DNA from: a virus
Virus record (IMG/VR): IMGVR_UViG_3300047494_000107
Coordinates: 46,534 to 110,533 of that record
Direction: 5' to 3' (one strand)
DNA: 64,000 nucleotides
Every line of letters starts with the position of its first letter. The stretch's first letter is position 1. A program made the translations under genes and the position numbers. Below, one piece after another: positions 5,311 through 64,000 of the stretch. The notes below the pieces were generated by a model. The model ran no database searches and was not told the origin of the DNA. It was given only the letters and a program-made list of their open reading frames with translations.

Positions 5311-5848
5311 CCCTCCTCGTGATCTCCTGAACAGAAAACGGAAGGCCGCCGGTCAAGTGCCCAGCCGTCACAGCATCATGAATCGTGTCCATGACGGCGA
5401 TGCACTGTGCATTGCGATAGAGCGCGAACTTGCCGGTATAGTTCGGCTCTAGCCTGTCAAGGTCGGCGAGGAACGCCTTGTGGTTAGCGTCGACCTCAGT
5501 CTGCTGCGCCTTCGCCTCGTCAACCGCGGTATCGCGCCGCCAACCAAACGGCAAGAGATCGGCGTGCGGCACGGGCTCGCCGGCTGCAGCCGCGGCTAAG
5601 TTGTCCAGCAGTTTGGTGATTTGATGCTGGCCCGGCTCATCGGGCTTCATCTGCCAGTAGCCGAGCAAGTCGGCGAGAAAGCCTACTGCTTGATACACCT
5701 CGGCGCAGACGTCTTGCGCGTCGGACAGAGTGGCGACATGTGTCGGCCACGGGCTTATCCGGCTGTACGGCTGGGACCTGATGTCACGGTAAGCTGTATC
5801 ACCCAAGCGGGCGTCTCCTCGCAGCGTCTCGCTACAAGGTGTCAACAT
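5297..5848 (-). CDS. Hypothetical protein (start uncertain)
   Basis: 183 aa ORF with TTGACA hexamers around its 5' end. Confidence 0.45.
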   Translation of the reverse strand: MLTPCSETLRGDARLGDTAYRDIRSQPYSRISPWPTHVATLSDAQDVCAEVYQAVGFLADLLGYWQMKPDEPGQHQITKLLDNLAAAAAGEPVPHADLLPFGWRRDTAVDEAKAQQTEVDANHKAFLADLDRLEPNYTGKFALYRNAQCIAVMDTIHDAVTAGHLTGGLPFSVQEITRRVERV

Positions 5849-5884
5849 CCCCCAGGTGTGTCAAGCGGATTGTATCAAGGCAGA

Positions 5885-7099
5885 TTAGCCGACCCACTCT
5901 ATGATACACAGACCGTCAGCGCCGTTGCCGCCTCCGTAGCCGTTGCCGCCCGCGCCGTTGCCGCCCATGCCGGGGTAATTTCCGGGCGAGCCTGCGCCGC
6001 CCAAGTTACCTGTTCGGCCGCCGCTGCAGAACGACCCGCCGCCCACGCCACCTACGATAGCACCTGCAGCTATTCCAATGGAGAACCCGCCGAAGTTGCC
6101 GGTAAAGGCCAGACCGCCTGTGGCCGAACCTGGCGTTCCTCCCGAGTTCCCGTTGCCTGCCCCCGCGCCACCACCATAAGCGATGAGCGTCCCAAACACG
6201 GACGCGTTTCCGGCCGCACCATTCGCAGCCGCTCCGCCGCCCGCGCCGCCCGCGCCCACCGAGAAGCTCAGCACCTGCCCCGACGACACGGTGATGATGT
6301 TCTCAACATAACCAGCGCCTCCGCCACCCGTGCCACCCGCCGCCGAGCCGCCGCCACCACCGCCGCCACCGCCGCCCCAAAGTCTGATTTTTGCGTAATT
6401 TACGCCTGCTGGGACGGTCTGCGTACTACTGCCCGGCCCGAAAATGAGCAGTGCTTTCGGAACCGCGGAGAAAGTCGGACGACCGTCCGCGTCAACGGTT
6501 ACCAGACTGCTGGCATATGTCCCCGACGGAATATCAAGCTGAGCCCCGGCACGAACTTGGAAGGCTGTGGAGAAGTTCGTAACCGTCGTACTGCCGTGTG
6601 TGAGCGTCCCTCGCGCAATCTCCAGACTGCCGGCCGGCGTCGTCGTACCAACGTTCAGCGAAAAGCTATCGACCACATTCGAATACGCCACGTATGGTAT
6701 GAAGTTAGGGTCATACGAAGGGTGCCCCTGGGGCGGTCCGATCACCGTGAACGGACCTTGCTGCACCGTGGTCGGCGTCGCGTACCAATAGACGCTCAGC
6801 GTCCCACTACTCGGCACCAGCGACGTCGCGTTCACGACGTAGGTCTGCGTGTCCGACCCGTTCGTCGCCCCGTGCGCGCGAGCGGCGAAGTCTCCGTAGA
6901 TCATCTCAAACGGCGCCGGGAATGTGGCCGTCAACGTCAACCCGCTGAAATTGTAAGTCGCGACACTCTGGTTTAGGAGCCCAATCTTGTTGGACCCGCG
7001 CTGCCGTTCAGCGATCGACGCCGTGACGGCTTGAAAAGCGGCGTCAAGCACAACGGACGAGACGTATTGTTTATTTGAGAAGTTCGGTGTCGACGACAT
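5885..7099 (-). CDS. Tail fibre protein with glycine-rich C-terminal domain
   Basis: Follows baseplate J/I; TVPAGVNYAKIRLWGGGGGGGGG...GGNGADGLCIIEW glycine-rich fibre domain. Confidence 0.8.
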   Translation of the reverse strand: MSSTPNFSNKQYVSSVVLDAAFQAVTASIAERQRGSNKIGLLNQSVATYNFSGLTLTATFPAPFEMIYGDFAARAHGATNGSDTQTYVVNATSLVPSSGTLSVYWYATPTTVQQGPFTVIGPPQGHPSYDPNFIPYVAYSNVVDSFSLNVGTTTPAGSLEIARGTLTHGSTTVTNFSTAFQVRAGAQLDIPSGTYASSLVTVDADGRPTFSAVPKALLIFGPGSSTQTVPAGVNYAKIRLWGGGGGGGGGGSAAGGTGGGGAGYVENIITVSSGQVLSFSVGAGGAGGGAAANGAAGNASVFGTLIAYGGGAGAGNGNSGGTPGSATGGLAFTGNFGGFSIGIAAGAIVGGVGGGSFCSGGRTGNLGGAGSPGNYPGMGGNGAGGNGYGGGNGADGLCIIEWVG

Positions 7100-7109
7100 A
7101 AGGCACCTG

Positions 7110-7751
7110 CTAGCTAGAAGGATTCAAACCTGGGTCAGTCAAGTAGATGTCAGGCAAAAGCGGCTGCGCGTTCTGCGTCGACGCCGACACCACGAGAGGA
7201 ACAGCCGTCACACTGTCGTCGAGGTAGCTGCCTTCGACGCGATGCGTGTCGGTGTAGTTGATAGTATCCAGGAACAAACCGCCGTCTTGTTGCACTAGGT
7301 TGAACGGGACACCGGCTGGCCGGATACGAGAGAGGCTCACGACGAAAGCGTTGATCGCCGCTGTTGTTACACCGTTCGGAAGCGTGATCGTATAGCCTAC
7401 CGGCGTCCTATCCGAGACGGTTACCGGCTGGCCGAAAACGAACTGACCCCAGATCTCAATGGCCGGCGTTGTGCCGACAAAAGCCAAAACCGTGGCGACG
7501 ATACGCGTTGAATACGAGCTGTCAGCTTCGTTCTGCGCCCGCTGAATACCGAGCAGCAATCCCCACACGTCTAGCCAACCCCACTGGGCGCTCGAAAACG
7601 AGTTGATCTGAGCGGCGATCATGTCAGCGCTGCTCGTGAAGTCCGCCGCCGGCACCGCTGATGTATCCGACAACTGCGCGAACGTCGTGCCTGGGCGAAG
7701 ATAGGTCGCCGGCTGGTCCGCCAGTTGTTTCAGGACATCAAAGAAGTTCAC
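7110..7751 (-). CDS. Baseplate wedge subunit (gpI-like)
   Basis: WLDVWGLLLGIQRAQNEADSSYSTRI and RIRPAGV motifs; GTG start overlaps the J stop. Confidence 0.75.
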   Translation of the reverse strand: MNFFDVLKQLADQPATYLRPGTTFAQLSDTSAVPAADFTSSADMIAAQINSFSSAQWGWLDVWGLLLGIQRAQNEADSSYSTRIVATVLAFVGTTPAIEIWGQFVFGQPVTVSDRTPVGYTITLPNGVTTAAINAFVVSLSRIRPAGVPFNLVQQDGGLFLDTINYTDTHRVEGSYLDDSVTAVPLVVSASTQNAQPLLPDIYLTDPGLNPSS

Positions 7752-12836: not shown

Positions 12837-13068
12837 ATTGACGCTTGTAGCACGCGTCTTGAGACAGGCGGAGGGCTAGAACCCTGCCGCTCGCCGGCTG
12901 TCCGGTAGTAGACGTAAAGGTAGTATTTTGAGTACGGCGCCGAGCCTGGAGGCCAACCAGACCCGGCGCCTGACCCATCGCTCACAGGAGCTTCGCCATG
13001 GGCTACCGAGACTCTACACCGCTTCATCTAGGCCGGCCTGGAACAAAAACGTCAACAGGATCGGTTTC

Positions 13069-13312: not shown

Positions 13313-13356
13313 CTTGATACATCTTGCGATTCTTGAGACATTCGTGGTATGATACA
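13313..13356 (+). promoter_or_regulatory. Sigma70-type promoter of the lysis cassette overlapped by three CTTGATACA-type boxes
   Basis: TTGCGA-18-TATGAT with extended TG; boxes at 13313, 13332 (CTTGAGACA) and 13348 (TATGATACA). Confidence 0.6.
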
Positions 13357-13379: not shown

Positions 13380-13946
13380 ATGGCCTCGGTTGACCGTTTC
13401 ATGGCGTTGATGCGCGAGGTCGAAAGCGACACACTCGACCTGGACCCGAATGACAGCGGCAACTACCCGAGCGGACAAGTCGGCGTGGGGCCACTCGTCG
13501 GCAGCAAATGTGGCATCAGCGCCGCGTCCTACCCGACCCTGGATATAGCCAATCTGTCCGATGACGCCATTCAGGCTATCTACCAGCGCGACTACCTTGA
13601 CCCGATACAGTTCTCGGCGCTGCCCGACGCGACCGGTATTATGGTAGCGGATGAAGCCGTCAACCAAGGCGTGGCCGCGGCGAAGATCACACTGCAGCAG
13701 GCGGTCGGTGTGACAGCTGATGGCTGGATCGGGCCGCAAACTTTGGCGGCGGCGGCGGCAGCGGATGATGCGTCTCTCGCGGCTGAGATCTGGGCTCGTC
13801 GCGCGTTGAAATACGCGACCACGAACCGCTTCAGCCTTTACGGATTGGGCTGGATGCGCCGCATCGTCAAGGCGTTCACATCGGCGGTCCCTGCGGCATT
13901 GCCGTTGAGTGTCAAGTTCTCTGGCAAAACACCGAAGTCCGGCTGA
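13380..13946 (+). CDS. Endolysin, glycoside hydrolase family 108
   Basis: DPNDSGN...SKCGISAASYP..DIANLS...AIQAIYQRDY, D.AVNQG, LQQAVGVTADGWIGPQTL, YGLGWMRR. Confidence 0.92.
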   Translation: MASVDRFMALMREVESDTLDLDPNDSGNYPSGQVGVGPLVGSKCGISAASYPTLDIANLSDDAIQAIYQRDYLDPIQFSALPDATGIMVADEAVNQGVAAAKITLQQAVGVTADGWIGPQTLAAAAAADDASLAAEIWARRALKYATTNRFSLYGLGWMRRIVKAFTSAVPAALPLSVKFSGKTPKSG

Positions 13947-16081: not shown

Positions 16082-16083
16082 CC

Positions 16084-33571: not shown

Positions 33572-34033
33572 TCAGCGCGCGGCGGCGTAGAAGTCGGGCG
33601 ACAGATCCAACTTCGTATTCGACGAAATGTCAAAGCCGTCGAGACGGTATGTGCGCGGCCCGAAGTGTATCAAGATTGTCCGCGAGCACTTGCTGGCGCC
33701 GAATGCGATAATCGCGCCGTAACCGTTGCTCAGAATACCGTTCGGGATTGACATAGGTGTCGTCGTCCAGTTCACGCAGTCGAGGCCGGTCACCGGATGG
33801 CCGCTCGTGTTCAGCACCATGATGAGCGGCGTCGCGCCAAGCGCCGACAGATCAATCCGGCTGATCGGGATGTCCGTAGTCACCGACTCTGAAGCGACCG
33901 GCTCTTGGTGCCACACGCCAAGACCATCTTGAACCCAGCCTGGAGGAGCCGACTGCGCCTTGGCCGTCACCGATCCGAACAAAAGTCCCGCGGCCAAGGC
34001 AGCGGAAGCCAGCGTCGCGATACGCACATTCAA
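33572..34033 (-). CDS. Hypothetical exported protein
   Basis: AAGGAG RBS; signal peptide ending AKA; 2 Cys. Confidence 0.65.
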   Translation of the reverse strand: MNVRIATLASAALAAGLLFGSVTAKAQSAPPGWVQDGLGVWHQEPVASESVTTDIPISRIDLSALGATPLIMVLNTSGHPVTGLDCVNWTTTPMSIPNGILSNGYGAIIAFGASKCSRTILIHFGPRTYRLDGFDISSNTKLDLSPDFYAAAR

Positions 34034-34894: not shown

Positions 34895-34973
34895 GGAGCC
34901 TCCTGAGCGTAGGGTCAAGCGTGGGATTGATACAGCATGCCGGCTATCCGAAGTCAAGCAGCCTGTATCAAGA

Positions 34974-40070: not shown

Positions 40071-40571
40071 CTACGTTGGGACAGGCACGCCGCTCTCGCG
40101 GCACCACAGCAGCACGGCCATCAACAAGGCGTCAGCTACGTTATGGTCTTTGACACGGCTGAACGACGCCACGCTTCCAGGGAACAACCGCGCGCAGACC
40201 TGACGCGACATCTCCTTGCCTGGCTGCATTTTGAACGCCTTGCGCCACGTAACCGGCGCGATCCGCTTCACACTCATCCGGCGCCCCAGCATGATGCCTT
40301 CGAGCAGCCCCGCCGCATTCGCGAACCGCGCCGCCGACGCCACGCCTTCACCTGGACGCGACGATACGATCTCGACGGCGCCGACGGTCGGACCATACTT
40401 GTCCAGGTTCGCCATGATCGTCGCCACGTCAGGGTCGCTCCGCTTCTTGCCGTCCCCACGTGTCCGAGAGACGCCTAGATCTGTATCAAGAAAAGGTGCG
40501 TAGTCCGGACCCGCATAGATCGCCATGCTCGGACTGACGCCCGGATCAAAGGCGCAGACGACCAGAGGCAT
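40071..40571 (-). CDS. RuvC-like Holliday junction resolvase
   Basis: AFDPG, AVE.V..RPGEGVAS, P..WRK, KDHNVADALLMA. Confidence 0.85.
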   Translation of the reverse strand: MPLVVCAFDPGVSPSMAIYAGPDYAPFLDTDLGVSRTRGDGKKRSDPDVATIMANLDKYGPTVGAVEIVSSRPGEGVASAARFANAAGLLEGIMLGRRMSVKRIAPVTWRKAFKMQPGKEMSRQVCARLFPGSVASFSRVKDHNVADALLMAVLLWCRESGVPVPT

Positions 40572-40963
40572 CAGAAGCCAAGTGCGCGCCTGTACACGTC
40601 GAGCAGGGTGTCCTGCTCCTCCAACTTAGCCTGGTCCATCGCCCGCAGCTTGATGATCTGGCGGATAGTTGCGACATCAAACCCAGCCGACTGAGCTTCT
40701 TGGCCGATCTCCTTGATGTCCTCGGACAGCGCCTTCTGCTCTTCTTTCAGCCGCTCGATCCGCTCGACGATGCTCCGAAGCCGTCGCGCCGCATCCGCTT
40801 CGGAAATATCGGCCGCCTTCGTTTTCTTTTTACCCTTCTTCGTCTCACCGGAGTTATGGCCGATGCCAGCAATCTGATCCTCAACCGCGGCAATCTCATC
40901 CGCATTGATGACGTAGGCGGTAGGAGGAGCCGGCGGCGACAGCGTTGTCGACATCTGTGTCAA
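40571..40963 (-). CDS. gapR: GapR (DUF2312) nucleoid-associated protein homologue
   Basis: LRSIVERIERLKEEQKALSEDIKEI..EA.SAGFDV..IRQIIKLR...LLDVYRRALG. Confidence 0.9.
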   Translation of the reverse strand: MTQMSTTLSPPAPPTAYVINADEIAAVEDQIAGIGHNSGETKKGKKKTKAADISEADAARRLRSIVERIERLKEEQKALSEDIKEIGQEAQSAGFDVATIRQIIKLRAMDQAKLEEQDTLLDVYRRALGF

Positions 40964-41199
40964 TTCCCTGTCTTTTGTTGCGCGACGAACCGCTTCTTCG
41001 CCTCGTCGAAATCAGCCGGGGTCACCACGCCGCCCGTCAATTCCTGGATGCGCGCGGCATGCTTGGCGGTCGGTATCCGCCGACCCGTCGACCAATGATT
41101 CACACACGCCACGGTCACGCCGCATTCACCTGCGAGCCATGTTCGGGAGCGCCCTGTCTCAGCGAACCAATCCATCAAGTTCATCGCGGCCCTTGCCAT
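40960..41199 (-). CDS. Cro-like HTH protein
   Basis: LAGECGVTVACVNHWSTGRRIP...IQELTGGVVTPADF. Confidence 0.85.
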   Translation of the reverse strand: MARAAMNLMDWFAETGRSRTWLAGECGVTVACVNHWSTGRRIPTAKHAARIQELTGGVVTPADFDEAKKRFVAQQKTGN

Positions 41200-41208: not shown

Positions 41209-41243
41209 CTTGATACATAAATGTCTTGATACACCGCGTCAAC
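41209..41243 (-). promoter_or_regulatory. Promoter of the cro/replication arm with two tandem TGTATCAAG boxes
   Basis: Minus strand TTGACG-17-TATGTA; boxes at 41209-41217 and 41225-41233. Confidence 0.65.
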
Positions 41244-41397
41244 CAGGAACATCGCCGCTTGGCTTCTGCTGTATCAAAACCTCCTGATCCGCCGCCAAAC
41301 TTCGTCAACACACTGATATTGCAGGTCGATCGACGAGCACCCTGGTCAGCCCCGCCACCAACATGCTAGGCCGAGCCATCTTGACACAGAGGCATAT

Positions 41398-48127: not shown

Positions 48128-48693
48128 GCCACGCTCGTCTCATTGAAGACGGTCTCGACGATGCACTTGACCTTGGAATGCAACTGCTCGACCGACCCGT
48201 CGTTGAACACAGTCCAGTCCACCTTCAAGTCGGCGATGAACGCCTCGCTGGCGTGGCTCTGGCCGATGTCGCCGGGATTGTTGGGCCGTTCGATGCGGAT
48301 GACGATGCCGCCCAGATCGTGAATGCGTTCGACCTCGTTGGGGAAGCGCACATCCGTCACGACGACGTCGGAGTGCTGAGATGCCACGTCTTCGAATGTA
48401 TCAAGCCAAAAGTCGGGGTCCATATCCACGCGGCCCCACTCGGTCCCCAGCGTCTGGGCGGCATGCCGCGGTGTCTGGTTGGAGAGGTAAGGGCTTGGTA
48501 CGTGTTTTAGGACGCCCCAAAGCGCGGCGTTGATGTGTTCCTCTTTTGCGCCGCGAATGCGCATCAGCGTCGCGAGCATCTCTTTGAGCGGATCGGCGAA
48601 TGCGACGCGTGTGGCGCCTTCGCGCACGAGACCCAGCGCCGCCGTGTCCTTGCCGGCTCCCGCATAGCCGCACAACCCGACGAGGCGGATCAT
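48124..48693 (-). CDS. Deoxynucleoside monophosphate kinase
   Basis: GLCGYAGAGKDT, FADPLK, QTLGTEWGR, TDVRFPNE, HASE. Confidence 0.92.
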   Translation of the reverse strand: MIRLVGLCGYAGAGKDTAALGLVREGATRVAFADPLKEMLATLMRIRGAKEEHINAALWGVLKHVPSPYLSNQTPRHAAQTLGTEWGRVDMDPDFWLDTFEDVASQHSDVVVTDVRFPNEVERIHDLGGIVIRIERPNNPGDIGQSHASEAFIADLKVDWTVFNDGSVEQLHSKVKCIVETVFNETSVA

Positions 48694-48932
48694 ACCTCGA
48701 CTCCGAGTTCGGCGAGGCGCTGTTTGATGGCCGTGGCTTCGCCTTCGAAGAAAAAAGTGGCCGCTCGCACTATATCGGCGAGAAAGTCTTCGTTAGAGCT
48801 AATATGCCGATGTATCACGCTTAGCGCTACATAACCGTTAATGGCTGCACTAGTTAGCGCAGTTTTATCCTCCTTCAACCTATGCAGGTCGTTGCGCAAC
48901 CGCGCAACCTCATCCATATCCTCCAGCTTCAC
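48690..48932 (-). CDS. Hypothetical protein
   Basis: GGGAGG RBS; behind a TTGACA hexamer that carries a box. Confidence 0.5.
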   Translation of the reverse strand: MKLEDMDEVARLRNDLHRLKEDKTALTSAAINGYVALSVIHRHISSNEDFLADIVRAATFFFEGEATAIKQRLAELGVEV

Positions 48933-49368
48933 AACGCCTGTCCTCCCATCCGTGTCACTTGAGACTCTGGCTGTATCAAGACAGGCTGTCAATCAGGTTT
49001 CCGGCATTTCAGCAACTTTTTGTATCACCGCGTTGATACAACCCTCAGATGGCGGCGCTGTTCGACATCGTACGCTTTCAAATCGTAAATTGAGCGGAAA
49101 GGTGGCCACTCAATGGCACCGACCTTCCTCTTTTCGTCCGCCTGGCGTTCCAGGTGCGCCAGAAGCGCTCGGTAACCGAGGACGATCGCCAAGGCCCCGC
49201 ATGTGACAGCGAATCCGTACATGGACTACCCCTTCTTTCGGTAGCCGATCGACGCCACGACGACGAGCACGACCAGCAATATGTCAAAACCCATCCAGAC
49301 TTCCGCCGTGACAGGACTGTAGAGAGCACTCGGTGTCGTCGCCCCAGTATGCGTGGTGAGTGTCGGGT

Positions 49369-51810: not shown

Positions 51811-51868
51811 GTTTGGCTCCTTCCGTTGTCTTGATACAGACAGTGTTTCCTGCGGAACGAGACAGGTG

Positions 51869-54800
51869 TCAACACACTTTCGAAGGGTACATGTGAGCCA
51901 GGTCACGCGCGTAACACAGAGGTGACACGCCCGACTGGAAAGCCCCGTAATTCGAATAGGGCGGCCACGCCTCGAAGTGCGGGCCGAGCAGGCTCTCCAC
52001 GGCATCCAGCCACGCCAAGAAGCGCTCGTAGTCCGCCGGCATGCGCATTTGACGATTCGTCACGTCATCGGCGAAGGGCCAGCCTCGCCACTTCCCAGCC
52101 GGGACGGCCGAACCTGTCCTTATATGCGTACGCGACGCAACGCCCCGGAGATAAATAGGGCTGACGACGCGGGTCCATGTCTGACCAGTTGTCCGCGTCG
52201 GCGTAGTGCTCAAGGGCTTTGCGAAGACGGTCGATCTCCTCCGCAGCGCAATACGTGGAGCAGGAGCCTGGATTCGGGCAGTCGCATTCAGCCTGAACTT
52301 GGCCAATGCTCATCGCGCGTTCACCATCATGTCTCGCACCGACGCGCGGAGCAGAAGGCGCGGATGATCGTGTCGCCGCAACCACGCGATCGCATCCCGA
52401 GTCGCGTTGAAGTGCATGTCGCTATCCCCCATCAGCGCCACGAGGTTTGCAATTATACGGGCTGTCTCATCGTGGGGCATATCTACGCCGTCAGCGGGCG
52501 GCAGCTCGGGATCATTCATCGTCCGTCACCGGATTCGTGCAGTTCGCATCAAACCATGCTCTGTCGATCGCAGCATCGCCGCCAGCGGGCCTGTTCAGCG
52601 TCCAGGTGTAGTAAAGATCTGCGTCATTCGCAATTCCGTTCGGGCGCAAGAGAATGTTGTCCACCCCACTCCCATACCAGGACGCCGAGCAGTACGGGCC
52701 AATCTTGTAGACGTCAGACTTTTTTGCCGCCCCCTCTCGAATCAAGATGACGGAACCGACGCTGCCAATACCCAAAGGTTCACCGAAGGCCAAGTAACAG
52801 AAGCCGAAGCCCACGACAAACGCTAGCAAAAGGCTGAAACTTTCACTCGATCGCATCTGCCCACCAGGAATAGCCGCACGAGCGGCAGTTGTATTGCAGG
52901 ACGTCGTAGCCTTCGAACCAGTCGCTGTACGTCCGGGCTTGCACTTCCTGCGCGCCGCAATGCTGACAAGGAATCGGATCGTCAAGCCAGGTTTCGCTCA
53001 CGACAGGAACCTCATTTTGCCGAACTCGCGCAGCAAGTACCGACGATCAACACGATCCATATGGTAGGCCATGATTTGGCCAGGGAACGTGCGAAACGAG
53101 CGGCGTCGCTTCGACTCACGACGAGCCGGCAATCCGACACCTTTGCAAACGTAGACGCCTAGGTAGTAGCCCTCCGCGTCTACAAGCATGCGTCTCTGAT
53201 AAGGGCAGTTCACGGAGGGGCCCGCTTCACGAACCGGCCCTTCCTGTCCCTGACAGGCGTCACGGCTGACGCAGCTTTGGCGGCGTCAAAGGCGGCGTTG
53301 TCGTGGTCGGCGGCGAACATCACCGCGTCCCAATACCGCGCCTGCAGATGCTTCGGCCAACGCTCAACGGGCAGCCCAAGCCACGGGCCCATCTCCTTGA
53401 CCTCTTCGAGGGCCAGAAACCCCGTCCTGACGTCACCAAGGAGTTTGCTGTCCACGAGCGCGCCAAAGTCGTCGACAGGCTTTGGCCAAAGTTCGCTCTT
53501 GACCGCTTGTATGAGGCTGCGGAGCATCACGGACGCGCTCCTTTCTGTGGTGGGCGCTTGTTGGCGCCGAACAGCTGCTTGAAACTCTCGACGCACTGGA
53601 GATACTCATCGACCTCCCGTTCGAACTTGGTGAGTTCGTCCTCGGTGGGCAGCCCCTTTGCTTTCGGCGTGTCGTCGATGTGGGTACTGCGCATGGACCT
53701 GAGGTCCAGCCAGTCGGCCAAGAAGTCATGCAGGTTTTCCACGCTTTCCGGGTTCAACTGCGCCGCATTCGCGACGCCGTCCAACATGACCTCCAGCGAG
53801 AGTTCGTCCGCCCCAGTCTGTATGACAGTAAAGCGATTTCGCGCGTCGTTAGCGATCGAGAAGGCTTCGCCAATGATTGCCGGCATGTCAGTTCTCCTTG
53901 CCGCGGACGAGGCAGTCCTTGATCGCGTCGATCAGGTCGCACGAAGCGGTGACCTCGCCATCTTCGTCACGCGCCTCAATCTTGCCGCGCTCAAAGTCGA
54001 AATCAACATAGCCATCAGACGGCCCTTTGTAATCAGGGTGCGGCATCAAGTCGTACAACTGCACGACTAATTCGTTCACGTAGTCCCAGCCTGTGACCGT
54101 TCCGACCAAGCGTCCGCAGATGGAATAGTCCAGGCGACCTTCTTCATTGCTCATTTGATTCTCCTGTTTCAGGTGTTGTCAGCGATCCACTGATTAGCGG
54201 CCGATCGCGAGGGAAATATCACTACGACGGGGAAAGCAGTGCTACCGTAGGGGTTTGTACGACCTTTTCCCGTCTTGTCCTGCCAAAACCCGTCAACCAC
54301 GAACGGCAAGAACGCACCGTCGTCCTCGGTCACGTCCATCGGCGCATACTTTCGCGCCACGAACCGAAAGCTATCGCCGAACGTGACGCCGCCCTCGTCC
54401 AGCAAGCGGCGAAGGACGTCAGCCGCGCTTTTCCCCGTCGCGCCTTGCTGCACCAAGGTATCCATCAACGTTTGAGACGCGATACCTTTCGGTGCCAGGC
54501 CCAAGAGGGCCAGAGCAAGTTTCATCGTCTCGTACGAGTTCATACAGGGTCTCCTACGACAACGATGCCTGTGATGCCGGCTGCAGCCTCGCCGATGTAC
54601 GTTACTGATACATGCTCGGGGGCTGATGCCCAGGTGGAGGGCAGGTAGGTCCATTCGTCCGCTGGATTCATCATCCTGGCGGCCTCTTCCGTCTCGGCGG
54701 CTACTACAGCAGCGCTGTATGTGTCGTAGCCGCGTTTCTCACGCTGAATCAGAAGCCACAACTTCACGGCACGTCTCCCGTGCTGTTGACGAGGCGTGTC

Positions 54801-55306
54801 AAGACAGCCGCTGACGCAAAGGCCGCCAAGGCCGCGTAGGCACCGCCCAGGATCAGCGCGTGGTGAAAAGTCACCAGACCGAACCCCACGGCCAGAAGGC
54901 CGAGGAAGGACGAAGCGATCAAGCCCGCAACCAGCGCCCCGGCGAAGCGGCCCAGGAAGGCCGCACGAGGCCACACGTCGGCGCCGCTTGCCTGTGTGTA
55001 GGTGACAGGGCCAGACGGCTTGACGACCTCACAGACAGCGTCAGGGCGGTAGGCGCCCGCAAGGCCGCCAGACCCTACCCAGGTGACGCAGGCGTCGCTC
55101 AGCGTGTCCTGGTCGACCGGTTTGATGTGGTGGGCGGCCCCGCTCACCGAAGCGGCGTACGCCAGCACACGAGCCTCGACGCGCTCGTAGTCCACAGGCA
55201 CTACCCGACGAGCGACAGAGTCATAGGCCACGCTTTTCGGAGCGAGGGGATGTTCAGCGGACGGGGCGGCTAGGCGGCCAGCCGGGGTGGCGTGCTCATT
55301 GGTCAT
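51869..55306 (-). other. Operon of small hypothetical genes (incl. 52310-52519, 52998-53213, 53527-53886, 53888-54154, 54764-55306)
   Basis: Co-oriented coupled ORFs with RBSs, behind the promoter near 55360. Confidence 0.55.
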
Positions 55307-55793
55307 GCGGCTCTCCTTCCGTTCTGGTTGATACAGACACTGTTCGGCGGGGTTGTGTCAAGGGCCTGTATCATGTCTGAGCCAGACGTATCGAGGGCGG
55401 TTCTTGACCGTTGAGAACGTCCCGGTAATCTAGGGTTATCCTTGTATTGTGTGTTCTTGATTTGCCTTGTGTTATCAAGAGATGGGCAATAGGCGCCGCG
55501 CCACCCCGGTAATGAGCGGCCCCCTGTGGGCCACTCATACCGTTGGGTGCGCTATTAGCCGACCTGTGCTCAAGGCTCTGGGGTGTTTTTCATATTGTTA
55601 ATATGGTAGTTGAATTGATCGCATAAAGGCTATAGCGTTGATAACCGCTATTCAAAGTCTTATCTTCTCTATCAACAAGTTGGTTCTTTTTCGGCACCCT
55701 TTAGTGGTTGTATTTATATTTCTCCAATTTAACTTCGTATCTGGTATTATAGCTGTATTTAAGCGCAGTCATTTGGCGCAGAAAGGGCTCGGC

Positions 55794-56873
55794 ATGGCTA
55801 AGGTCGGCAACGTTTTCACCTACCTGGGGCAGGATTACGCCTATGTGCGGGATCAGGCGGGTACGATGAAAGCCACCAATGTAAAAGGTAAGGCGGGTCA
55901 GGAGGTTATCGTCCCCACTTCCTACACGGTGTGGCAGACGCTGTGTCCCGAGGCTGGGTGCGGCGCCCCGTTCGAAGTGTTCCTGCCTTGGAGCTTCCCT
56001 GTCGGCCGGTTCAACATGGTGCGGCGATGCCCCGACCACCGAAAGCCGCGGGTCAAGGTGGCGGGGTCCGACGAATACATCCCGGAAGAGGTGAAGGAGC
56101 GGCGAAAGCTGGTCCGGGCGCCGCGGGCGGGGGTGGATCGAGGGGCGTCCAAGCGCCACGCACCTGCCGACGACTATGTGTTTGCCTGCATGGTGGCGTC
56201 CAACGAGGCTGCTGGCGAGGGCGTGCGCCCAGGCGCCCTTGTTCAGATGGTGCGGGACGGGGGACGCGCGTTACCGGAGGAGACGCGGAAGGTGCTGGGC
56301 CTGCACAAGCCCGAAGATATGCACCTGAAGTATCTCTCGCTGGCGCTGGCACGGTTGCGTGAGAAGGGCCGGATCGTGCCGGTCGGCGGGGGGAACGCTC
56401 GACGCTGGCTGTTGAAGACCAGCAACTACATCCCGTTGGATCAGCAAGAACCCAAGCCTGTGCGGCCCGTAGTGTCGGTTCAGCCCGCACCACCTGTTCC
56501 CGCACCACCTGTTCCCGCATCGCCTCCCGCGCCACCTATCGCGCCTGCCGTGAAGACGCAGCGAGAGTTAACTATTGATCTTTGGGTACTACGTGGTGTC
56601 CCAGCCAAGGAAGCCGAGGAGGCGTATTTCAACCCCGACGCCCGAAAAAGGTTGGCGGACGAATTAGGGCCGTATTTCCTCACCGACGCGGCCCTGAATG
56701 AACGAGGAAAGTTCGTACCGACCGAAGCGCCCCTTGAAATACGGCAAGCGCTTGGTCTCGCGCCCATCGTGCGGTATGTGGCCGACCCCAAACTTGCTGA
56801 AATGCAGTCTCAGTTCGGGGCGCCACCCCCGCCGCCCCCAGCGCCTTCCGCACCCCCTAAGCCTCAAGGCTGA
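55794..56873 (+). CDS. Hypothetical protein with Zn-ribbon-like segment, winged-helix-like domain and Pro-rich segments
   Basis: CPEAGC...RRCPDH; EGVRPGALV...LREKGRIV...RW. Confidence 0.65.
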   Translation: MAKVGNVFTYLGQDYAYVRDQAGTMKATNVKGKAGQEVIVPTSYTVWQTLCPEAGCGAPFEVFLPWSFPVGRFNMVRRCPDHRKPRVKVAGSDEYIPEEVKERRKLVRAPRAGVDRGASKRHAPADDYVFACMVASNEAAGEGVRPGALVQMVRDGGRALPEETRKVLGLHKPEDMHLKYLSLALARLREKGRIVPVGGGNARRWLLKTSNYIPLDQQEPKPVRPVVSVQPAPPVPAPPVPASPPAPPIAPAVKTQRELTIDLWVLRGVPAKEAEEAYFNPDARKRLADELGPYFLTDAALNERGKFVPTEAPLEIRQALGLAPIVRYVADPKLAEMQSQFGAPPPPPPAPSAPPKPQG

Positions 56874-57841: not shown

Positions 57842-58531
57842 CTATATGTTCTCGTTTTTGAGACTCGTTTCAAGTATGTAAGCGTTGTTCTTTCTACGTT
57901 CTCTGCGCTCAGCGCCAAGGTCAGAACGGCTGGGTCCTACGCGGTAGATACCCCGTATGATCTCAATGCCTTTTGCCTTTTTCCGCGTGTAGTTATCGCA
58001 TTTCGGCATGATTGAGGCGGACCAGCTCAGTACGAATTTGAACGATGGGTCGTCTTGCAGGGCGGCGAATATCTTGGTCCAGATACCCTTGTGGCTCCAA
58101 TGGCGTATCGTCGATCGGAAGTTGGTCATTTGCCAGTCGTCGACGGTCAGGCCGTTCTGGGCGGCCGACAGCACGGCTTCGACGCATGACCTGGCGTTCT
58201 CGACCGACTGGACGCCCTCGACGAATAGCGTGGATCGCACACGGCGCCACTGCGTTTCGGTCAGGGCCACCCCTTCGAGCGTCTCGGCGTAGAGCGGCCT
58301 GGGTTTGCGCGCGGCGGGGTCGACCAGGTAGGATGAGAGCCATTCGTCGAGGTCTTCGAGCCGGTAGCGGATGACGGTCTCGAATCCCTTCTTGGTTTCG
58401 ATGTCCATTTCCGCGAACGGCGGCCCGGAACCTTGCTCGCGCCAGTAGCGCAGCAACGCAGGACGAATGCCGAGGTACGCAGCCGCGAGGGATTGGTCTA
58501 TCCATCGGGATTGTGTAGATATGTCAGTCAT
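57842..58531 (-). CDS. MerR/Xis-type HTH fused to an IS5 transposase-like N-terminal fragment
   Basis: AAAYLGI...LRYWR..GSGPPF...IRYRLEDLDEWL; LTETQW...R..VEAVL...RHWSHKGIWTKIFAALQDDP. Confidence 0.65.
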   Translation of the reverse strand: MTDISTQSRWIDQSLAAAYLGIRPALLRYWREQGSGPPFAEMDIETKKGFETVIRYRLEDLDEWLSSYLVDPAARKPRPLYAETLEGVALTETQWRRVRSTLFVEGVQSVENARSCVEAVLSAAQNGLTVDDWQMTNFRSTIRHWSHKGIWTKIFAALQDDPSFKFVLSWSASIMPKCDNYTRKKAKGIEIIRGIYRVGPSRSDLGAERRERRKNNAYILETSLKNENI

Positions 58532-59123
58532 GCAGCCTCCTGTGCCTCCGTTGTCGCCTGAATACTTGGCCGAGAGCGCGCCTCAGCCGTCTAGCATGGT
58601 CGAGAAACTGCTCGCGAAGGGTCGGCGGCGACACAAGCCTGTGCCGCTTGAGCCGCCGGTACCACCCATGGTGTCGACGTCGACCGATGTCGCGCTCAAG
58701 GCGAACGCCGAGCACAGCCAAGCGCTGAGGCATTTGCGGGTGTTGCTGCGCCGCGGCGGCGTGAACTTGGCCGAGTTCCAGGCTCGGCTGTACGAGACCG
58801 AGGCGGTCGATCAACTGGCGAGGTTCATGCGCGACGAACGGCTGGAACCGGAGTTCAGGCGACGCTGTATCAAGGACATCCTTGATCGGGCGCGCGGCAC
58901 CCCGATGGGCGTCGCACGTGTTGAGGTGCCTGACTTGGCGGCGTCCCTCGCCGAGGATGTGCTGTTCCGCGAGGTGCAAGAGGGGGCGGAGTCGGCGCTG
59001 GCCATGCAAGAGATGCAGACATGGCTGGCCAAACCTTTGGCGCAGTGGCCAGCGCACATCCGGGCGAAGTATGAAGCCGAAGCGTCATTGTTGACGTCGA
59101 TTGAGGAGATCACGCCTGGCTAG
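58521..59123 (+). CDS. Terminase small subunit-like protein (start uncertain)
   Basis: EAVDQLARFMRD...RRRCIKDILDRARGTP pattern. Confidence 0.45.
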   Translation: MSVMQPPVPPLSPEYLAESAPQPSSMVEKLLAKGRRRHKPVPLEPPVPPMVSTSTDVALKANAEHSQALRHLRVLLRRGGVNLAEFQARLYETEAVDQLARFMRDERLEPEFRRRCIKDILDRARGTPMGVARVEVPDLAASLAEDVLFREVQEGAESALAMQEMQTWLAKPLAQWPAHIRAKYEAEASLLTSIEEITPG

Positions 59124-59299: not shown

Positions 59300-59360
59300 G
59301 GGCTGGGTCTCCTTTTGGGTTTTAACGCATTTCAGATTCGAGAAAGTTTTGCTCTAACTG
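59297..59360 (-). repeat. Leader repeat D1
   Basis: Near-identical to 59593-59656; ends at an ATG. Confidence 0.85.
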
Positions 59361-59370
59361 ATCCAACGGG

Positions 59371-59595
59371 TTAGTCGGTGATGTCGGGCGGCTTGCGTTG
59401 AACCATTCGAACAACCGGCAACGTCTGACCGTCGCCGACATCAAGTTTGCCGTCCACGATGGGCAACCGGTCGTAGAGGTCGGCATGGATCATGAGCAGG
59501 CCGAAACACTGCGCGGCCTGTTCGACCAAGCGGCGCGTATCCAGTTCGAGCACGTTCGGGGGTACCAAATACTCCCCGTCATCAGAGATAGGCAT
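59371..59595 (-). CDS. Hypothetical protein
   Basis: ATG at the end of repeat D2. Confidence 0.6.
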   Translation of the reverse strand: MPISDDGEYLVPPNVLELDTRRLVEQAAQCFGLLMIHADLYDRLPIVDGKLDVGDGQTLPVVRMVQRKPPDITD

Positions 59596-59656
59596 GGGGT
59601 GGGTCTCCTTCTGGATTTTCACGCATTTCAGATTCGAGAAAGTTTTCGCCTAACTG
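59593..59656 (-). repeat. Leader repeat D2
   Basis: CAGTTAG..AAAACTTTCTCGAATCTGAAATGCGT..AAGGAGACCCA.CCCATG. Confidence 0.85.
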
Positions 59657-59948
59657 GTATTTTTCGACGCTTCGCTCGCGCCTCCTTTAGCCGTGCTTCC
59701 GGGGTGAGAGGCTGACGTATCCCCATCTCGGCGTCGTCGGGCGGCGATCCTTCGATGAACCAAGCGAGCAACAGGATAGCGTCAGGGTGCATGCAGATCC
59801 CGGCGGTCTCCCATCGTTCAAGCGTACGGTGAGGCACGCGCAACGCATTGGCTGCGGCGACCTGGGTGTAGCCCATGCGCGTGCGCCACTGGAACAACTC
59901 ATGGCCGATGTAACGGGCGGTATGGAGCCGCAGGACGGTGTTAGGCAT
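59628..59948 (-). CDS. XRE-family HTH protein
   Basis: WRTRMGYTQVAAANALRVPHRTLERWETAG. Confidence 0.85.
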   Translation of the reverse strand: MPNTVLRLHTARYIGHELFQWRTRMGYTQVAAANALRVPHRTLERWETAGICMHPDAILLLAWFIEGSPPDDAEMGIRQPLTPEARLKEARAKRRKIPVRRKLSRI

Positions 59949-60234
59949 CTATGACTGGCGCGGTGAAGGCCGACCCGTTCTGCTGAGCCGCACGGATGGC
60001 CGGCAGCAGCTGGTCGGCGTAGTAGTCGCCACGCCAGCACTGCGTCATGTCGTCAGGTGTCAGGACGGCGTAGTGGTCACCTATCTGTGTCTCGCCAGAC
60101 TCGTCCTCGCGTGTCCACACGGTCGCGATGAATCGCTGACCTTTGTATTTCGTGTCGGTGAACTCGACGGTGAAGAAGCCGATACCGCCCACACCGTTGC
60201 GGTGATAGCGGACGCGCTGAACCTTGATCGCCAT
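59941..60234 (-). CDS. Phage hypothetical protein with YHRNGVGG motif
   Basis: ATG at the end of repeat C1; C-terminal WRGDYY. Confidence 0.65.
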   Translation of the reverse strand: MAIKVQRVRYHRNGVGGIGFFTVEFTDTKYKGQRFIATVWTREDESGETQIGDHYAVLTPDDMTQCWRGDYYADQLLPAIRAAQQNGSAFTAPVIDA

Positions 60235-60288
60235 AGGGCTGGGTGTCCTTTCGGGATTCTGGGCGACGTGAAAACGAGAAAGGTTGCG
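60232..60288 (-). repeat. Leader repeat C1
   Basis: CGCAACCTTTCTCGTTTTCACGTCGCCCAGAATCCCGAAAGGACACCCAGCCCTATG. Confidence 0.88.
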
Positions 60289-60289
60289 C

Positions 60290-60834
60290 CTAGTTGTCGA
60301 ACAGTCCCACGTGCGTGATGGTGCAGCCCGGCTCGGCGTTCTCGCATTGCTCGCGAGCGTGTTCTTCGTCGTCAGCCTCAAACCGGTAGACCTGGGGTTC
60401 TTCTGTCTCAGGCCAGCCGATCGGGCGATACTCAACTAGATACGTGTTCATGGGTTTGGCCGCAGGAACGGTCGTACCGTCCGCGAATACGGTCTCAATA
60501 CGCCCGTCGCGCCAGTGCTTCACGTGGGCATGCCCGAGGCGTTTGGCGGCCCGTAGAGCGGCCTTCTTTGCACCCCCGAGCGTTGAATGCCACTTGCCTA
60601 TAGGCTGACGGCGCATGGGGTTTGTCACGCAATATATGGTCACGGCGTCACCTCGCGGAACAGGTCAGGCCGCTTGGCGGCTTCGGCGCGCAAGGCTCGC
60701 ACGATGGCGTGGCCCACTCGCATGGATGGCACACGGATGTCGTCGCATCCGTCAAAGCCGCCTGCTTTGACCACGTAGCCTTGAGGCTTGATGCCGGTCA
60801 GATAGACGCGATGATCGATGTCGTCGGGATGCAT
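60290..60834 (-). other. Two small hypothetical genes (60290-60643, 60640-60834)
   Basis: Coupled ORFs following repeat C2. Confidence 0.55.
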
Positions 60835-60887
60835 GGGCTGGGTATCCTTCCGGGATTCTGGGTGACGTGAAAACGAGAAAGGTTGCG
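60832..60887 (-). repeat. Leader repeat C2
   Basis: Near-identical to C1; ends at an ATG. Confidence 0.88.
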
Positions 60888-60888
60888 A

Positions 60889-62136
60889 TTAGCGACGGTA
60901 ATATCTCAGCCCATCGTACGGTGACACGAACCAGCGCTTGGCGAACCGTGTTCCGGGCCAGCACACATCCTCGACCGCAAACGTGGCGTAATGTGTCGCG
61001 CCTTCGCCGAACTTGATTTCCCACGGTGTCGGCTCGCGGTGGTAGGTAATCTCGGTCACGTCGTCGCGAACGGGCAGCCTGCCAGTGAAGTCGGGGAGCT
61101 TGCTCACGGCGTCGCCTCCGCCCGGATGTCGGCCGGGTTCGGATGCCACGTGCGCGGCTCCCCGAGCGGCGATGTCCCGCACAACACGATGAGACCGAGT
61201 GGGCGATAGTCAGCCTCGACTACCCAGCCGCTACCGTTGACGCCGGCCACTTCGATGACCTTGCGGTCAAGGTCACCCCACAGCGCGTGAGAGGCGATAA
61301 TGACCCGTGTCCCGGCGGCCAAGGGTGGCAGCTCGTTCACGGGTTTGGTGTTCCAGAGTAGGGGTGACGGCGGGCGCGGCATGGCTCAGCGCTCCAGGAC
61401 GGGCGAGAAGGCCGCAGCACGGCGCGACGCGGCGAGCCGGCGGGCAAGGCGGCGGGTCCTCTCGCGTACCTCGCGCGCGTCGACATCGTCACGGTTCGCG
61501 CGGGCGGTGTCGCGATGGCGGGCGGAGCGGGACTGGTAAGACATGACGGAGTCTCCGGTTCAGCTGCGGTCAGTTGATCCGACGGCATGCCAGGCAGGGC
61601 GCGCGTGACGCCCCGTAGGGTATGCGGTCAGAGCGGGTCGGTGTCTGTGTCGAATTCGACTTCTTCGGCGATAGCCTCGCATGGGTTTGACCCGTGCCGG
61701 TCAATCCACAAAATCGTCCCGTGCCGTTTGCAGCCTAGGTCCAGCTCCGGTGTCGTTTCATGCTCCATGACCCCGAGGGCGGCAGCTTTGGCTTTCTCAA
61801 TCGCTTCCGCGTCGGACTCGGCTTGGACCGCGACGCTCTCATAGCCGCGCACCCAGTAGGCAACCTTCACTTCGTATTCAGCCATCACACCGACTCCTCC
61901 GCTAGGACCGCGAACGGTTCATGGTTGCCACCCAGACGCGAGCCGCAGCATTCGCACGGCGACCATGAGAATGATGGCTCGGCATCCTCTCCGCCGCTGT
62001 AAACGAGGTGACGCGCGGCGTCACCCCATACGCGCTTAATGTCGGCTGCCAAGGCCGGCCGGTCCTCCGGGACATCACCGTTGGCAATCCAGGCGATGCA
62101 GTCGGCGCACGCCATGCCTTCATATGTGACAATCAT
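60889..62136 (-). other. Small early-type genes (60889-61107, 61104-61382, 61386-61544, 61628-61885, 61885-62136)
   Basis: Coupled ORFs; motifs EIKFGEGATHY, V.V.AES..EAIEKA, FSWSPCECCGS. Confidence 0.6.
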
Positions 62137-62555
62137 CACACCGACTCCGTCTCGAATAGCAGCGTGGCGTATGCATGCGCCGAACCGAGGAACGCGCGGA
62201 GTTTCTTTGCTTGGCGTTGACACACTTTGAACGTGTGCTCTGCCTGCCTGCTATCGGTGTCGTAGCCGTATTCGGCACACCACTCGGCAAAGTCACCGTT
62301 AGCGTTGCCTACACCGTTGGCGTCAAGCGCGAGCGTGTCAAGCACGCTTTCCACGGCCGGCGGCTTTCCGTCGTGCCCACGCCCCATTGAGTACACCAAG
62401 GTCATGCGTGACCGGCCCCGACGTAGAATACAACGCCAATGGTCCATATTGTCCGAGTCGGGCATGTTCGGGTTGGAGTCAGTCCATTCGGCGGTCATGG
62501 TGATACCCATGTAGCCGACGAATTGCGCGATTGTTTGACGGGTGTCAGTGGGCAT
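62136..62555 (-). CDS. Phage early-region hypothetical protein
   Basis: YSMGRGH...VLDTL..DA...FAEWCAEYGYDTDSR; ATG at the end of repeat B1. Confidence 0.7.
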   Translation of the reverse strand: MPTDTRQTIAQFVGYMGITMTAEWTDSNPNMPDSDNMDHWRCILRRGRSRMTLVYSMGRGHDGKPPAVESVLDTLALDANGVGNANGDFAEWCAEYGYDTDSRQAEHTFKVCQRQAKKLRAFLGSAHAYATLLFETESV

Positions 62556-62601
62556 GGCTTGTCTCGTTTCCAGAGGTTTGAATGGGCGGCGAGGTGTCAG
62601 G
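62553..62601 (-). repeat. Leader repeat B1 (49 bp)
   Basis: Differs from 63672-63720 at 2 positions. Confidence 0.9.
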
Positions 62602-62767
62602 CTTTGTCGGCTGCCGCGCGGGCTTTCTCCCGCCGCCGATCGGCCAGATCCAGTCGGATATGCCGAACGTCGCTGCTGATCGCCTGAACCACTGTCAGAC
62701 CGACCATTCCGAAAAACAGAATGCCGACGCCGCCGAGAACAAAGGCGGCGTAAATCTCGATGAACAT
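62597..62767 (-). CDS. 56-aa membrane protein
   Basis: ATG at the end of A1; N-terminal transmembrane helix. Confidence 0.65.
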   Translation of the reverse strand: MFIEIYAAFVLGGVGILFFGMVGLTVVQAISSDVRHIRLDLADRRREKARAAADKA

Positions 62768-62894
62768 GTTCGTAATCTCCATTGGGGTTGTCCGTCTCAG
62801 TGAGCAAAGATTACCGTGACTAACGGTGTAGCGCAAGCCTTATTTTGGGCTTTGAGCGGAAAAATCCGTATCAAGACCATCGGATGCGGCGGCG
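62765..62894 (-). repeat. Promoter-RBS repeat A1 (130 bp)
   Basis: Matches 63871-64000; minus strand TTGCGC-17-TAATCT, GGAG RBS, ATG. Confidence 0.95.
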
Positions 62895-63041
62895 CGGGCT
62901 TGCTCTAGGCTTGTCGATTCCAGGACCATCTGTAGCGCGCGCCGCATCCGGTTGAATTGTTCGCGGCGCTTAGCCTGGCGGCGAGCCTGCGTGGTGTCAT
63001 AGGAGCGGCGCGGTTTGGTGGGGGGTATGTCGACCATCCTA

Positions 63042-63302
63042 TCAGGCGCGCAGAGCGCGCGCCCATTCGGTGGCCGGCAGGGTGGCGGTGTCGACGATTT
63101 TGCAGCCCGTCATTTCAAAGTCGAAGCGGGCGGCGCTTGCGGCGCGGCTGACGGCCAGCGCCGCGTCATAGGCGGCTTGTGCGCCGGCCGGGCGACGCTT
63201 GCGGTCGAGGACCCGTTGCGCATCGCGGAGGGCGGCAGCAGCCTTGTTAGCAGCGATTTCGAGGCGGAGATATTCAGCGTGCCATTCCGGGTTGTGAGCC
63301 AT
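63042..63302 (-). CDS. 86-aa Ala-rich hypothetical protein
   Basis: ATG at the end of A2. Confidence 0.65.
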   Translation of the reverse strand: MAHNPEWHAEYLRLEIAANKAAAALRDAQRVLDRKRRPAGAQAAYDAALAVSRAASAARFDFEMTGCKIVDTATLPATEWARALRA

Positions 63303-63429
63303 GTTCGTAATCTCCGTTGGGGTTGTCCGTCTCAGTGAGCAAAGACTACCGTTACTAACGGGGTAGCGCAAGCCTTATTTTGGGCTTTGAGCGGAAAAAT
63401 CCGTATCAAGACCATCGGATGCGGCGGCG
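63300..63429 (-). repeat. Promoter-RBS repeat A2 (130 bp)
   Basis: About four substitutions relative to A1/A3; -10 reads TAGTCT. Confidence 0.95.
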
Positions 63430-63434
63430 ACGTG

Positions 63435-63674
63435 TCAGGCGGTCGCTTTGGAGAAGGCTTGCTGCACGGTGTTCTCGCATTGCGCCGCGGTGCAGCCGTT
63501 CGTCAGATCGGCGAGGAACAGCTTGTGCGCATGCTCAATTGCGTGATGCACCTCGAAGCTTTTTGCCTTCTTAGGCTGCCGGCTGATGACAAAGGCTTCA
63601 GCACGTTTCCATGCGTCCGTGTAAAGTGCCTTTTCAGCGGGTGACATCAGACTAAACAGGTCTTTAGCTGTCAT
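63435..63674 (-). CDS. 79-aa hypothetical protein
   Basis: ATG at the end of B2. Confidence 0.65.
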   Translation of the reverse strand: MTAKDLFSLMSPAEKALYTDAWKRAEAFVISRQPKKAKSFEVHHAIEHAHKLFLADLTNGCTAAQCENTVQQAFSKATA

Positions 63675-63720
63675 GGCTTGTCTCGTTTCCAGGGGTTTGA
63701 AGGGGCGGCGAGGTGTCAGG
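63672..63720 (-). repeat. Leader repeat B2 (49 bp)
   Basis: CCTGACACCTCGCCGCCCCTTCAAACCCCTGGAAACGAGACAAGCCATG. Confidence 0.9.
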
Positions 63721-63873
63721 TTAGACCGGTTCGCAAGACACAACGTAGCAGTCAGCGTCGTGTAACTCGGGGCCGACCGACTTAATCGCATCGTCCCGGT
63801 TCAAGGCTTGAATATCTTTCCGGATACGCGCGCTCGTAAACATATGCTGGGCGATTATGCGGAAAGTTATCAT
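63721..63873 (-). CDS. 50-aa hypothetical protein
   Basis: ATG at the end of A3; stop abuts B2. Confidence 0.6.
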   Translation of the reverse strand: MITFRIIAQHMFTSARIRKDIQALNRDDAIKSVGPELHDADCYVVSCEPV

Positions 63874-64000
63874 GTTCGTAATCTCCATTGGGGTTGTCCG
63901 TCTCAGTGAGCAAAGATTACCGTGACTAACGGTGTAGCGCAAGCCTTATTTTGGGCTTTGAGCGGAAAAATCCGTATCAAGACCATCGGATGCGGCGGCG
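63871..64000 (-). repeat. Promoter-RBS repeat A3 (runs to the window edge)
   Basis: Matches A1. Confidence 0.95.

Follow-up and report, generated by a model that had tools for sequence, protein, structure and literature searches.

TGATACA, a short box dispersed over the control regions of a temperate phage genome and a candidate operator of a phage-wide network

To our knowledge, genome-wide networks run by a single repressor are known mainly from P1, the cluster A mycobacteriophages and the SPbeta-like phages. In P1 the operators occur singly or as overlapping inverted pairs; in mycobacteriophage L5 the reverse complement of the site starts with CTTGACA, hence the site also overlaps the -35 element; and in SPbeta the repressor MrpR (YopR) is a non-catalytic protein of integrase fold, with oriented SPBRE boxes of 17-20 bp. 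The C1 repressor of P1 has 22 dispersed operators with the asymmetric 17-bp consensus ATTGCTCTAATAAATTT (PMC8546580). In L5, a gp71 monomer reads more than 20 asymmetric 13-bp sites (stoperators) at promoters and in short intergenic gaps, and these sites are strictly co-oriented with transcription, their reversal abolishing function (PMC9283540). Here we analysed a box with the core TGATACA that is scattered over a 64,000-nucleotide stretch of viral DNA (positions 46,534 to 110,533 of IMG/VR record IMGVR_UViG_3300047494_000107; the window) and over the rest of the same contig. The box is a real, strongly non-random regulatory word. Judged from the sequence, it is probable, though well short of certain, that TGATACA is the recognition core of one phage-encoded, sequence-specific DNA-binding protein, probably a repressor, that serves a genome-wide operator network.

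The window is the final part of one 110,533-bp contig of 60% guanine-cytosine (GC) content, and window coordinates equal genome coordinates minus 46,533; coordinates outside the window are given as genome coordinates. The contig content is that of a tailed temperate phage, a tyrosine integrase being the sign of the temperate lifestyle. Tail-fibre and baseplate proteins, a family-A DNA polymerase, a primase/helicase, an exonuclease, a Gp2.5-like single-stranded DNA-binding protein, a GH108 endolysin, a GapR-like DNA-binding protein, a large terminase and a ParB-like protein are also encoded, and a stem-loop TIGR-TasA locus lies beyond the window on the same contig. Gene calling with our own crude codon-usage caller yielded 153 genes and left 12% of the DNA intergenic. 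The products of 70 of the 153 genes were each scanned against Pfam, PHROGs or both, and promoters were assigned by hexamer matches only. Because of the GapR-like gene, the CTTGAC-type -35 hexamers and the stem-loop TIGR-TasA locus, the host is probably an alphaproteobacterium. No nucleotide relative was found in the phage collection searched, queries with the DNA polymerase and the terminase returned only matches of at most 33% identity, and a primase/helicase query found no relative in IMG/VR, the genome collection or the metagenomes.

A preliminary description of the window, made by eye, had reported an asymmetric 9-bp box, CTTGATACA/TGTATCAAG, of which well under one exact copy was expected by chance. 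All 12 exact copies lie where it had placed them (5689, 5871, 13313, 33666, 34964, 40482, 41209, 41225, 48397, 48972, 51830 and 58866), and dinucleotide shuffles gave a mean of 0.26 and a maximum of 2. When one mismatch was allowed, 33 sites were counted in the window, where 6.5 are expected (largest shuffle 12); among them are every one-mismatch copy listed before (5857, 12858, 13332, 34926, 41270, 41380, 49032, 55327, 55354, 62867, 63402 and 63973) and nine absent from that list (1388, 10304, 18330, 31391, 31476, 41899, 48811, 49677 and 55367). The 9-mer is enriched as described, but the conserved unit is a 7-bp core, TGATACA, in two flavours. This 7-mer occurs 25 times in the window, where 3.2 copies are expected, and 50 times in the whole genome (29 intergenic and 20-21 coding copies), and it is the most intergenic-enriched 7-mer of the genome (binomial p=5.5e-15). 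The proposed enrichment over a Markov background also holds: the 29 intergenic copies, a roughly 20-fold excess, compare with 1.42 expected under an order-2 model trained on intergenic DNA (largest of 300 runs, 6), and 20 coding copies with 8.3 under an order-2 model trained on coding DNA. Shuffles and Markov simulations together rule out chance or base composition as the origin of the box. Nor can codon usage explain the intragenic copies, as had been argued, because they fall in all three reading frames and in both senses (8 sense, 12 antisense among the coding copies); a codon or peptide origin was rejected on the same ground.

Among the 21 single-base variants of TGATACA tested in intergenic DNA, those above expectation were T4G (9 copies), T4C (7), A7G (6) and T1C (5). 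Position 4 of the core prefers T over G over C, and TGAAACA has zero intergenic copies. The base 5' of the core is T in 15 cases, A in 9, G in 5 and C in none, and C is preferred two bases 5' of the core. These flanking bases define the two flavours, CTTGATACA and ATGATACA(C), with the extended forms C-T-TGATACA and A-TGATACA-C.

Boxes occupy 24 of the 75 intergenic gaps, with about 45 intergenic sites if exact copies and position-4 variants are both counted. They stand alone, in direct repeats at distances of 13, 14, 16 or 19 bp, or in inverted pairs (head-to-head with N5, N29, N31 or N36, and one tail-to-tail with N6). Their orientation to transcription is not fixed, about 20 copies running with it and 17 against; in co-directional gaps about 11 are forward and 5 reverse. 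The forward box contains the -35-like CTTGAT, one base off the alphaproteobacterial -35 hexamer CTTGAC, and the reversed box contains the -10-like TATCAT or TATCAA, of which TATCAT fits TATNNT. Boxes were found on -35-like and -10-like hexamers, in promoter spacers, in leaders (genome 5968), in one convergent gap (genome 10851) and inside genes. Some precede a TTGAC hexamer by 5-7 bp (window 5871, 34964 and 55367; genome 844) or lie at -10-like distance before a start codon (window 51830 and 55327), and reversed boxes frequently stand 8-37 nt ahead of start codons. The clustering on promoters that had been described is clear at 41209/41225 and at 34964/34926, but some copies have no recognisable -35/-10 pair. 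Many boxed gaps lack a clear -10, and a simple sigma-70 scan of window 40000-56000 did not mark the boxed gaps.

Boxed units in the window comprise tail fibre (5795-5908), lysis (13313-13356), early/replication (41209-41388), and nucleotide metabolism with small early genes (48397-49041, 51830 and 55327-55375); early control regions are as box-rich as late ones. Between 18218 and 34204 the 15 gaps (about 3.5 kb) hold zero boxes, with about 7 expected at mean intergenic density. These gaps belong to small cargo genes, secreted proteins, attP, the integrase and the polymerase operon, and the genes of this cargo/integration region are of the kind expected to be on in a lysogen. The small-gene arrays at 59300-63720 carry only the variant CTTGATACG, in three A repeats. 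The sites in the window are as follows, with helix-turn-helix abbreviated as HTH.

5689..5697, plus strand: exact CTTGATACA inside a 169-aa gene (5297-5806, minus strand), 109 nt from the gene start
5795..5908, minus strand: five-box cluster between the tail-fibre gene (5885-7099) and the next minus-strand gene, made of TGATACA (5795-5801), TTGACACC (about 5838-5845), CTTGACACA (5857-5865), CTTGATACA (5871-5879) and, on the plus strand, ATGATACA (5902-5908)
12858..12866, plus strand: variant CTTGAGACA in the divergent gap between the baseplate/tail operon (minus) and the lysis-side genes (plus)
13313..13356, plus strand: three co-oriented boxes, CTTGATACA at 13313, CTTGAGACA at 13332 and an ATGATACA core at 13350, with spacings of 19 and 16 bp; 24 nt separate the last of them from the endolysin gene (13380-13946)
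33666..33674, minus strand: exact box inside a minus-strand gene (33572-34027), in the direction of transcription
34926..34972: inverted pair of ATTGATACA (34926, plus) and CTTGATACA (34964, minus) flanking a minus-strand promoter-like pair, TTGACT-N19-TATCAA, whose -10-like hexamer lies within the 34926 box
40482..40490, minus strand: exact box inside a minus-strand gene (40071-40571), 83 nt from the gene start
40960..41184, minus strand: gene of P0003, a 74-aa Cro/YdaS-like HTH protein; the gene opens the leftward early/replication operon, and it may encode the binder of the boxes or be one of its targets
41209..41278: early control region with tandem exact boxes at 41209 and 41225 (plus) and an inverted TTTGATACA at 41270 (minus); the tandem boxes span the -10 (TATGTA, 41219-41214) as well as the spacer of the minus-strand promoter-like pair TTGACG(41242-41237)-N17-TATGTA, which reads into P0003 and the leftward replication operon
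41380..41388, plus strand: variant CTTGACACA right before the rightward genes toward the primase/helicase (42122-44431)
48397..48405, minus strand: exact box inside a gene resembling deoxynucleoside monophosphate kinases (48124-48693, minus)
48811..48819, minus strand: CGTGATACA, with the exact 7-mer core, inside an 80-aa gene (48690-48932, minus)
48972..48980, minus strand: exact box 7 nt downstream of TTGACA and upstream of the gene at 48690-48932
49020..49041: tail-to-tail palindrome TTGTATCA-ccgcgt-TGATACAA, present as first described
51830..51838, plus strand: exact box that reads TGTATCAAG on the minus strand, at a -10-like position 23 nt before the ATG of the gene at 51205-51810
55327..55375: three boxes ahead of a minus-strand gene (54764-55306), namely CATGATACA at 55367 (minus), CTTGACACA at 55354 (minus), with a perfect CTTGAC hexamer, and GTTGATACA at 55327 (plus), which reads TGTATCAAC at a -10-like position
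58866..58874, minus strand: exact box among uncertain gene calls, 335 nt upstream of an HTH_17/excisionase-like gene (57842-58531, minus, 229 aa)
62867..62875, minus strand: G variant CTTGATACG in repeat A, with the same variant at 63402-63410 and 63973-63981

The densest cluster of the genome lies beyond the window, where four exact boxes fall within 152 bp (genome 7042-7193) between two divergent orphan genes. Boxes of this cluster form a perfect 21-bp palindrome, ATGATACA-cgcgc-TGTATCAT (genome 7066-7086), the only perfect one of that length in the genome. The gap carries a promoter-like pair on either strand, TTGACG-N16-TATCAT on the minus strand and TTGACC-N16-TATCAT on the plus strand, the latter followed after 7 nt by the ATG of the protein P0002; both -10 hexamers lie inside boxes, and a third box fills the spacer of the minus-strand promoter. 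The start of the terminase/structural operon is boxed as well (genome 12623-12724), as is the TIGR-TasA locus (genome 8621, 9223, 9266 and 9538).

In the second TIGR sub-array (genome 9221-9274), two inverted boxes 36 bp apart form a stable hairpin. It is unlike the neighbouring units and lies between two guide-like hairpins with common AAGGGTGAGA/TCTCACC stems. This hairpin may serve to control the array or act as a promoter within it.

The preliminary description had ascribed the boxes to one phage protein that silences or organises many promoters. A single dedicated DNA-binding protein remains the most economical reading of the sequence, and silencing is probably, but only probably, its effect. 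We infer binding of a protein to the box, phage origin of that protein and repression from the enrichment, the sharpness of the motif, the intergenic bias and the overlap with several promoter-like pairs. Single boxes would probably be bound by a monomer or a loosely spaced oligomer, a mode proposed because boxes occur in either orientation and at variable spacing. Since the box fits both the -35 and the -10 hexamer, a bound protein could occlude either hexamer, the spacer or the leader. In this way the predicted protein would control early, replication, lysis, tail, structural and TIGR-TasA units, most likely silencing them in the prophage. So sharp a motif is more readily explained by a dedicated binder than by degenerate sigma-70 hexamers, and the boxes in leaders, spacers, a convergent gap and genes argue that it is not a pure promoter element. 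Their absence from the cargo/integration gaps and presence at many other units indicate that the distribution follows function, which supports the operator reading.

Compared with P1, the phage shares a temperate lifestyle, a genome of about 100 kb and an asymmetric site scattered at the promoters of functionally different operons. It differs in a core of 7-9 bp instead of 17, in a host of alphaproteobacterial type, and in a box that doubles as a -35-like or -10-like hexamer according to its orientation. No C1-family repressor was matched among the 70 proteins scanned. By analogy, the C1 operators appear to be closer functional counterparts than the L5 stoperators that had first been invoked, although, for want of a C1 relative, the network cannot be assigned to the P1 kind. 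With L5 the phage shares many dispersed asymmetric copies at promoters and between genes (here 50 cores, 29 of them intergenic), but the core is again shorter (7-9 versus 13 bp). Both orientations occur, as the preliminary description had noted, whereas the orientation rule that defines the L5 sites fails here. As the boxes are not fixed with respect to transcription, the network is not of the L5 kind. A two-domain repressor like gp71 (N-terminal HTH plus stoperator domain) was absent among the 70 scanned proteins, no direct gp71 query having been run. With SPbeta the phage shares many copies of one box across a large temperate genome, but its only extra recombinase, a XerD-like protein (genome 916-1818), keeps the full R-K-H-R-H-Y set of catalytic residues (R, K, HxxR, H and Y in the XerD alignment). 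A dead recombinase like MrpR was ruled out, the XerD-like protein being catalytically intact by alignment. The network is most likely a new variant of the known genome-wide phage operator networks, read by a predicted binder. The box is unusually short, free in orientation and able to stand in for either promoter hexamer, and it sits in a phage without a close relative in the collections searched. If the binder is found, it would provide a compact new repressor/operator pair and a regulatory map of early, lysis, tail, structural and TIGR-TasA units for an almost wholly unannotated phage, including the switching of a natural TIGR-TasA locus.

As candidate binders the preliminary description had named HTH proteins at 4168, 40960 and 59628, ParB proteins and winged-helix paralogues. 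None of these gained specific support. A winged-helix paralogue family was not detected by BLASTP or phmmer, and nothing links the box to the HTH proteins at 4168-4434, 59628-59948 and 57842-58531 or to the ParB-like protein at 37513-38361. The proteins P0001 (127 aa), P0002 (76 aa) and P0003 are orphans without homologues beyond near-identical copies; the sole near copy is P0011, with 93% identity to P0003, on a 476-bp contig. The Atlas model of P0001 showed no DNA-binding fold. P0002 (genome 7194-7424) adjoins the densest cluster and is the best lead for the binder; it heads a rightward operon with the TIGR arrays, a partner gene and tasA. From the placement of its -10 hexamer 7 nt before the ATG, its message is predicted to be leaderless, like the cI message made from PRM in lambda. 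The ESM Atlas model of P0002 resembles a MarR winged helix (template-modelling score, 0.75-0.80), and a single-sequence AlphaFold model is all-helical and matches generic helical bundles only. As the two models disagree, DNA binding by P0002 is a lead only. It is conceivable, but doubtful, that P0002 is an immunity repressor that would bind as a monomer to a 7-bp word mimicking the promoter, blocking the -35 in one orientation and the -10 in the other. If so, its operon would encode two repressors, one a protein that acts on the genome of the phage itself, the other RNA-guided and perhaps directed against competitors.

Several points weigh against the operator network. No homologue of C1, gp71 or MrpR turned up among the 70 scanned proteins, and high affinity for a single site would be unusual with a core of only 7 bp. 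Many boxes precede a TTGAC hexamer by 5-7 bp, where activators can bind as well, and some lie inside an operon that must stay on in the lysogen if the P0002 model is right. The gene calls are crude, so the labels coding and intergenic may be wrong in places. Scans of IMG/VR and the metagenomes for tandem boxes returned mostly low-GC contigs, and none of the hits, the few high-GC ones included, was related to the phage; a literature search for the box word itself returned primers only.

The position next to the -35 leads to the alternative that the box is the site of a phage activator of middle or late transcription, which would recruit the host RNA polymerase to weak promoters. An activator may act at the boxes just upstream of -35 hexamers, forward copies 5-7 bp from TTGAC; the many boxed gaps lacking a recognisable -10 and the boxed lysis, tail and structural units, which are late, fit this reading too. 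But the boxes occur in both orientations, they also cover -10 hexamers or sit in spacers and leaders, positions from which a bound protein would be expected to obstruct polymerase, and early control regions are no poorer in them than late ones; we regard an activator as unlikely overall. The boxes could instead be promoter elements for the host polymerase, possibly with a phage-modified sigma factor, CTTGATACA being an extended -35 and TGTATCAT/A an extended -10. The closeness of CTTGAT to CTTGAC, the fit of TATCAT to TATNNT, three clean pairs with 16-nt spacers and the reversed boxes ahead of start codons agree with such a role. It would require, however, that two different elements share one exact 7-mer as reverse complements by coincidence. 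A sigma-70 core element keeps a fixed orientation and distance, and the boxes keep neither relative to genes; they also lie in spacers, leaders, the convergent gap, the N5 and N6 palindromes and the interior of genes, their conservation is far sharper than that of sigma-70 hexamers, and the sigma-70 scan misses boxed gaps. A promoter element is therefore quite improbable.

A host regulator or nucleoid protein, recruited by the phage to tie its expression to a host signal, would account for the failure to assign any phage protein to the box, the three proteins beside the densest clusters being orphans. The perfect palindrome overlies the promoter of a phage gene pair, an arrangement that resembles autoregulation and speaks against a host factor, and we know of no alphaproteobacterial regulator with such a site; the consensus sequences of DnaA, CtrA, LexA, FNR/FixK, PhoB and IHF do not fit. 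We give a host factor little credence. Another possibility would be that the phage's own TIGR-TasA system, a nuclease-free RNA-guided repressor, targets the boxes through guide spacers of 9+9 nt. The locus is on the phage, one spacer is as long as the 9-bp box, there are boxes within and near the array, and TasA represses transcription when guided (bioRxiv 10.64898/2026.09.09.750476). Nevertheless, when every pair of 9-mers no more than 60 nt apart in the array regions was compared with the genome by brute force, the matches stayed at chance level. Two independent exact 9+9 targets were obtained where roughly 1 is expected, both of them away from boxes, and no box had an exact adjacent 9+9 match; two one-mismatch matches at boxes derive from the hairpin built of two boxes. 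A constant 7-bp core with variable flanks is, moreover, unlike dual-spacer targeting of 18 bp, and we consider this explanation extremely improbable. Since the guide matches do not exceed chance, the array boxes more plausibly serve to control the array and tasA.

Beside these main results, the promoter/leader modules at 51811-51868 and 55307-55375 are paralogous, each with TTGACAC, then TGTCTGTATCAA, then ACGGAAGGAG before the ATG, which suggests that a whole expression signal was duplicated. The GapR-like gene (PF10073, E=5.6e-28; window 40571-40954) directly follows the Cro-like gene in the leftward early operon, and its product is a phage copy of the alphaproteobacterial nucleoid protein. 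The XerD-like recombinase is additional to the integrase linked to a transfer RNA gene (window 25909-27006), the attB site being at tRNA-Thr; its presence alongside the ParB-like gene leads one to ask whether the phage has a plasmid-like or dimer-resolving stage. Over its first 348 residues the primase/helicase shares 94% identity with its only near homologue, P0007 (871 aa, PF13148), which is encoded on an 18-kb public contig and has a different C-terminal half; by sequence, the replication protein of a close relative has undergone a domain swap. Another repeated word, GGAAACGAGACAAGCCATG, ends precisely at the start codons of small minus-strand genes (genome 397; window 62560 and 63679). Since the left end of the contig holds one of the copies, the array of small genes seems to run across the contig ends, as in a circular or permuted genome. 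Downstream of P0001, a leftward operon carries a Fic/DOC-domain gene and an RtcB RNA-ligase gene side by side (genome 3724-5551).

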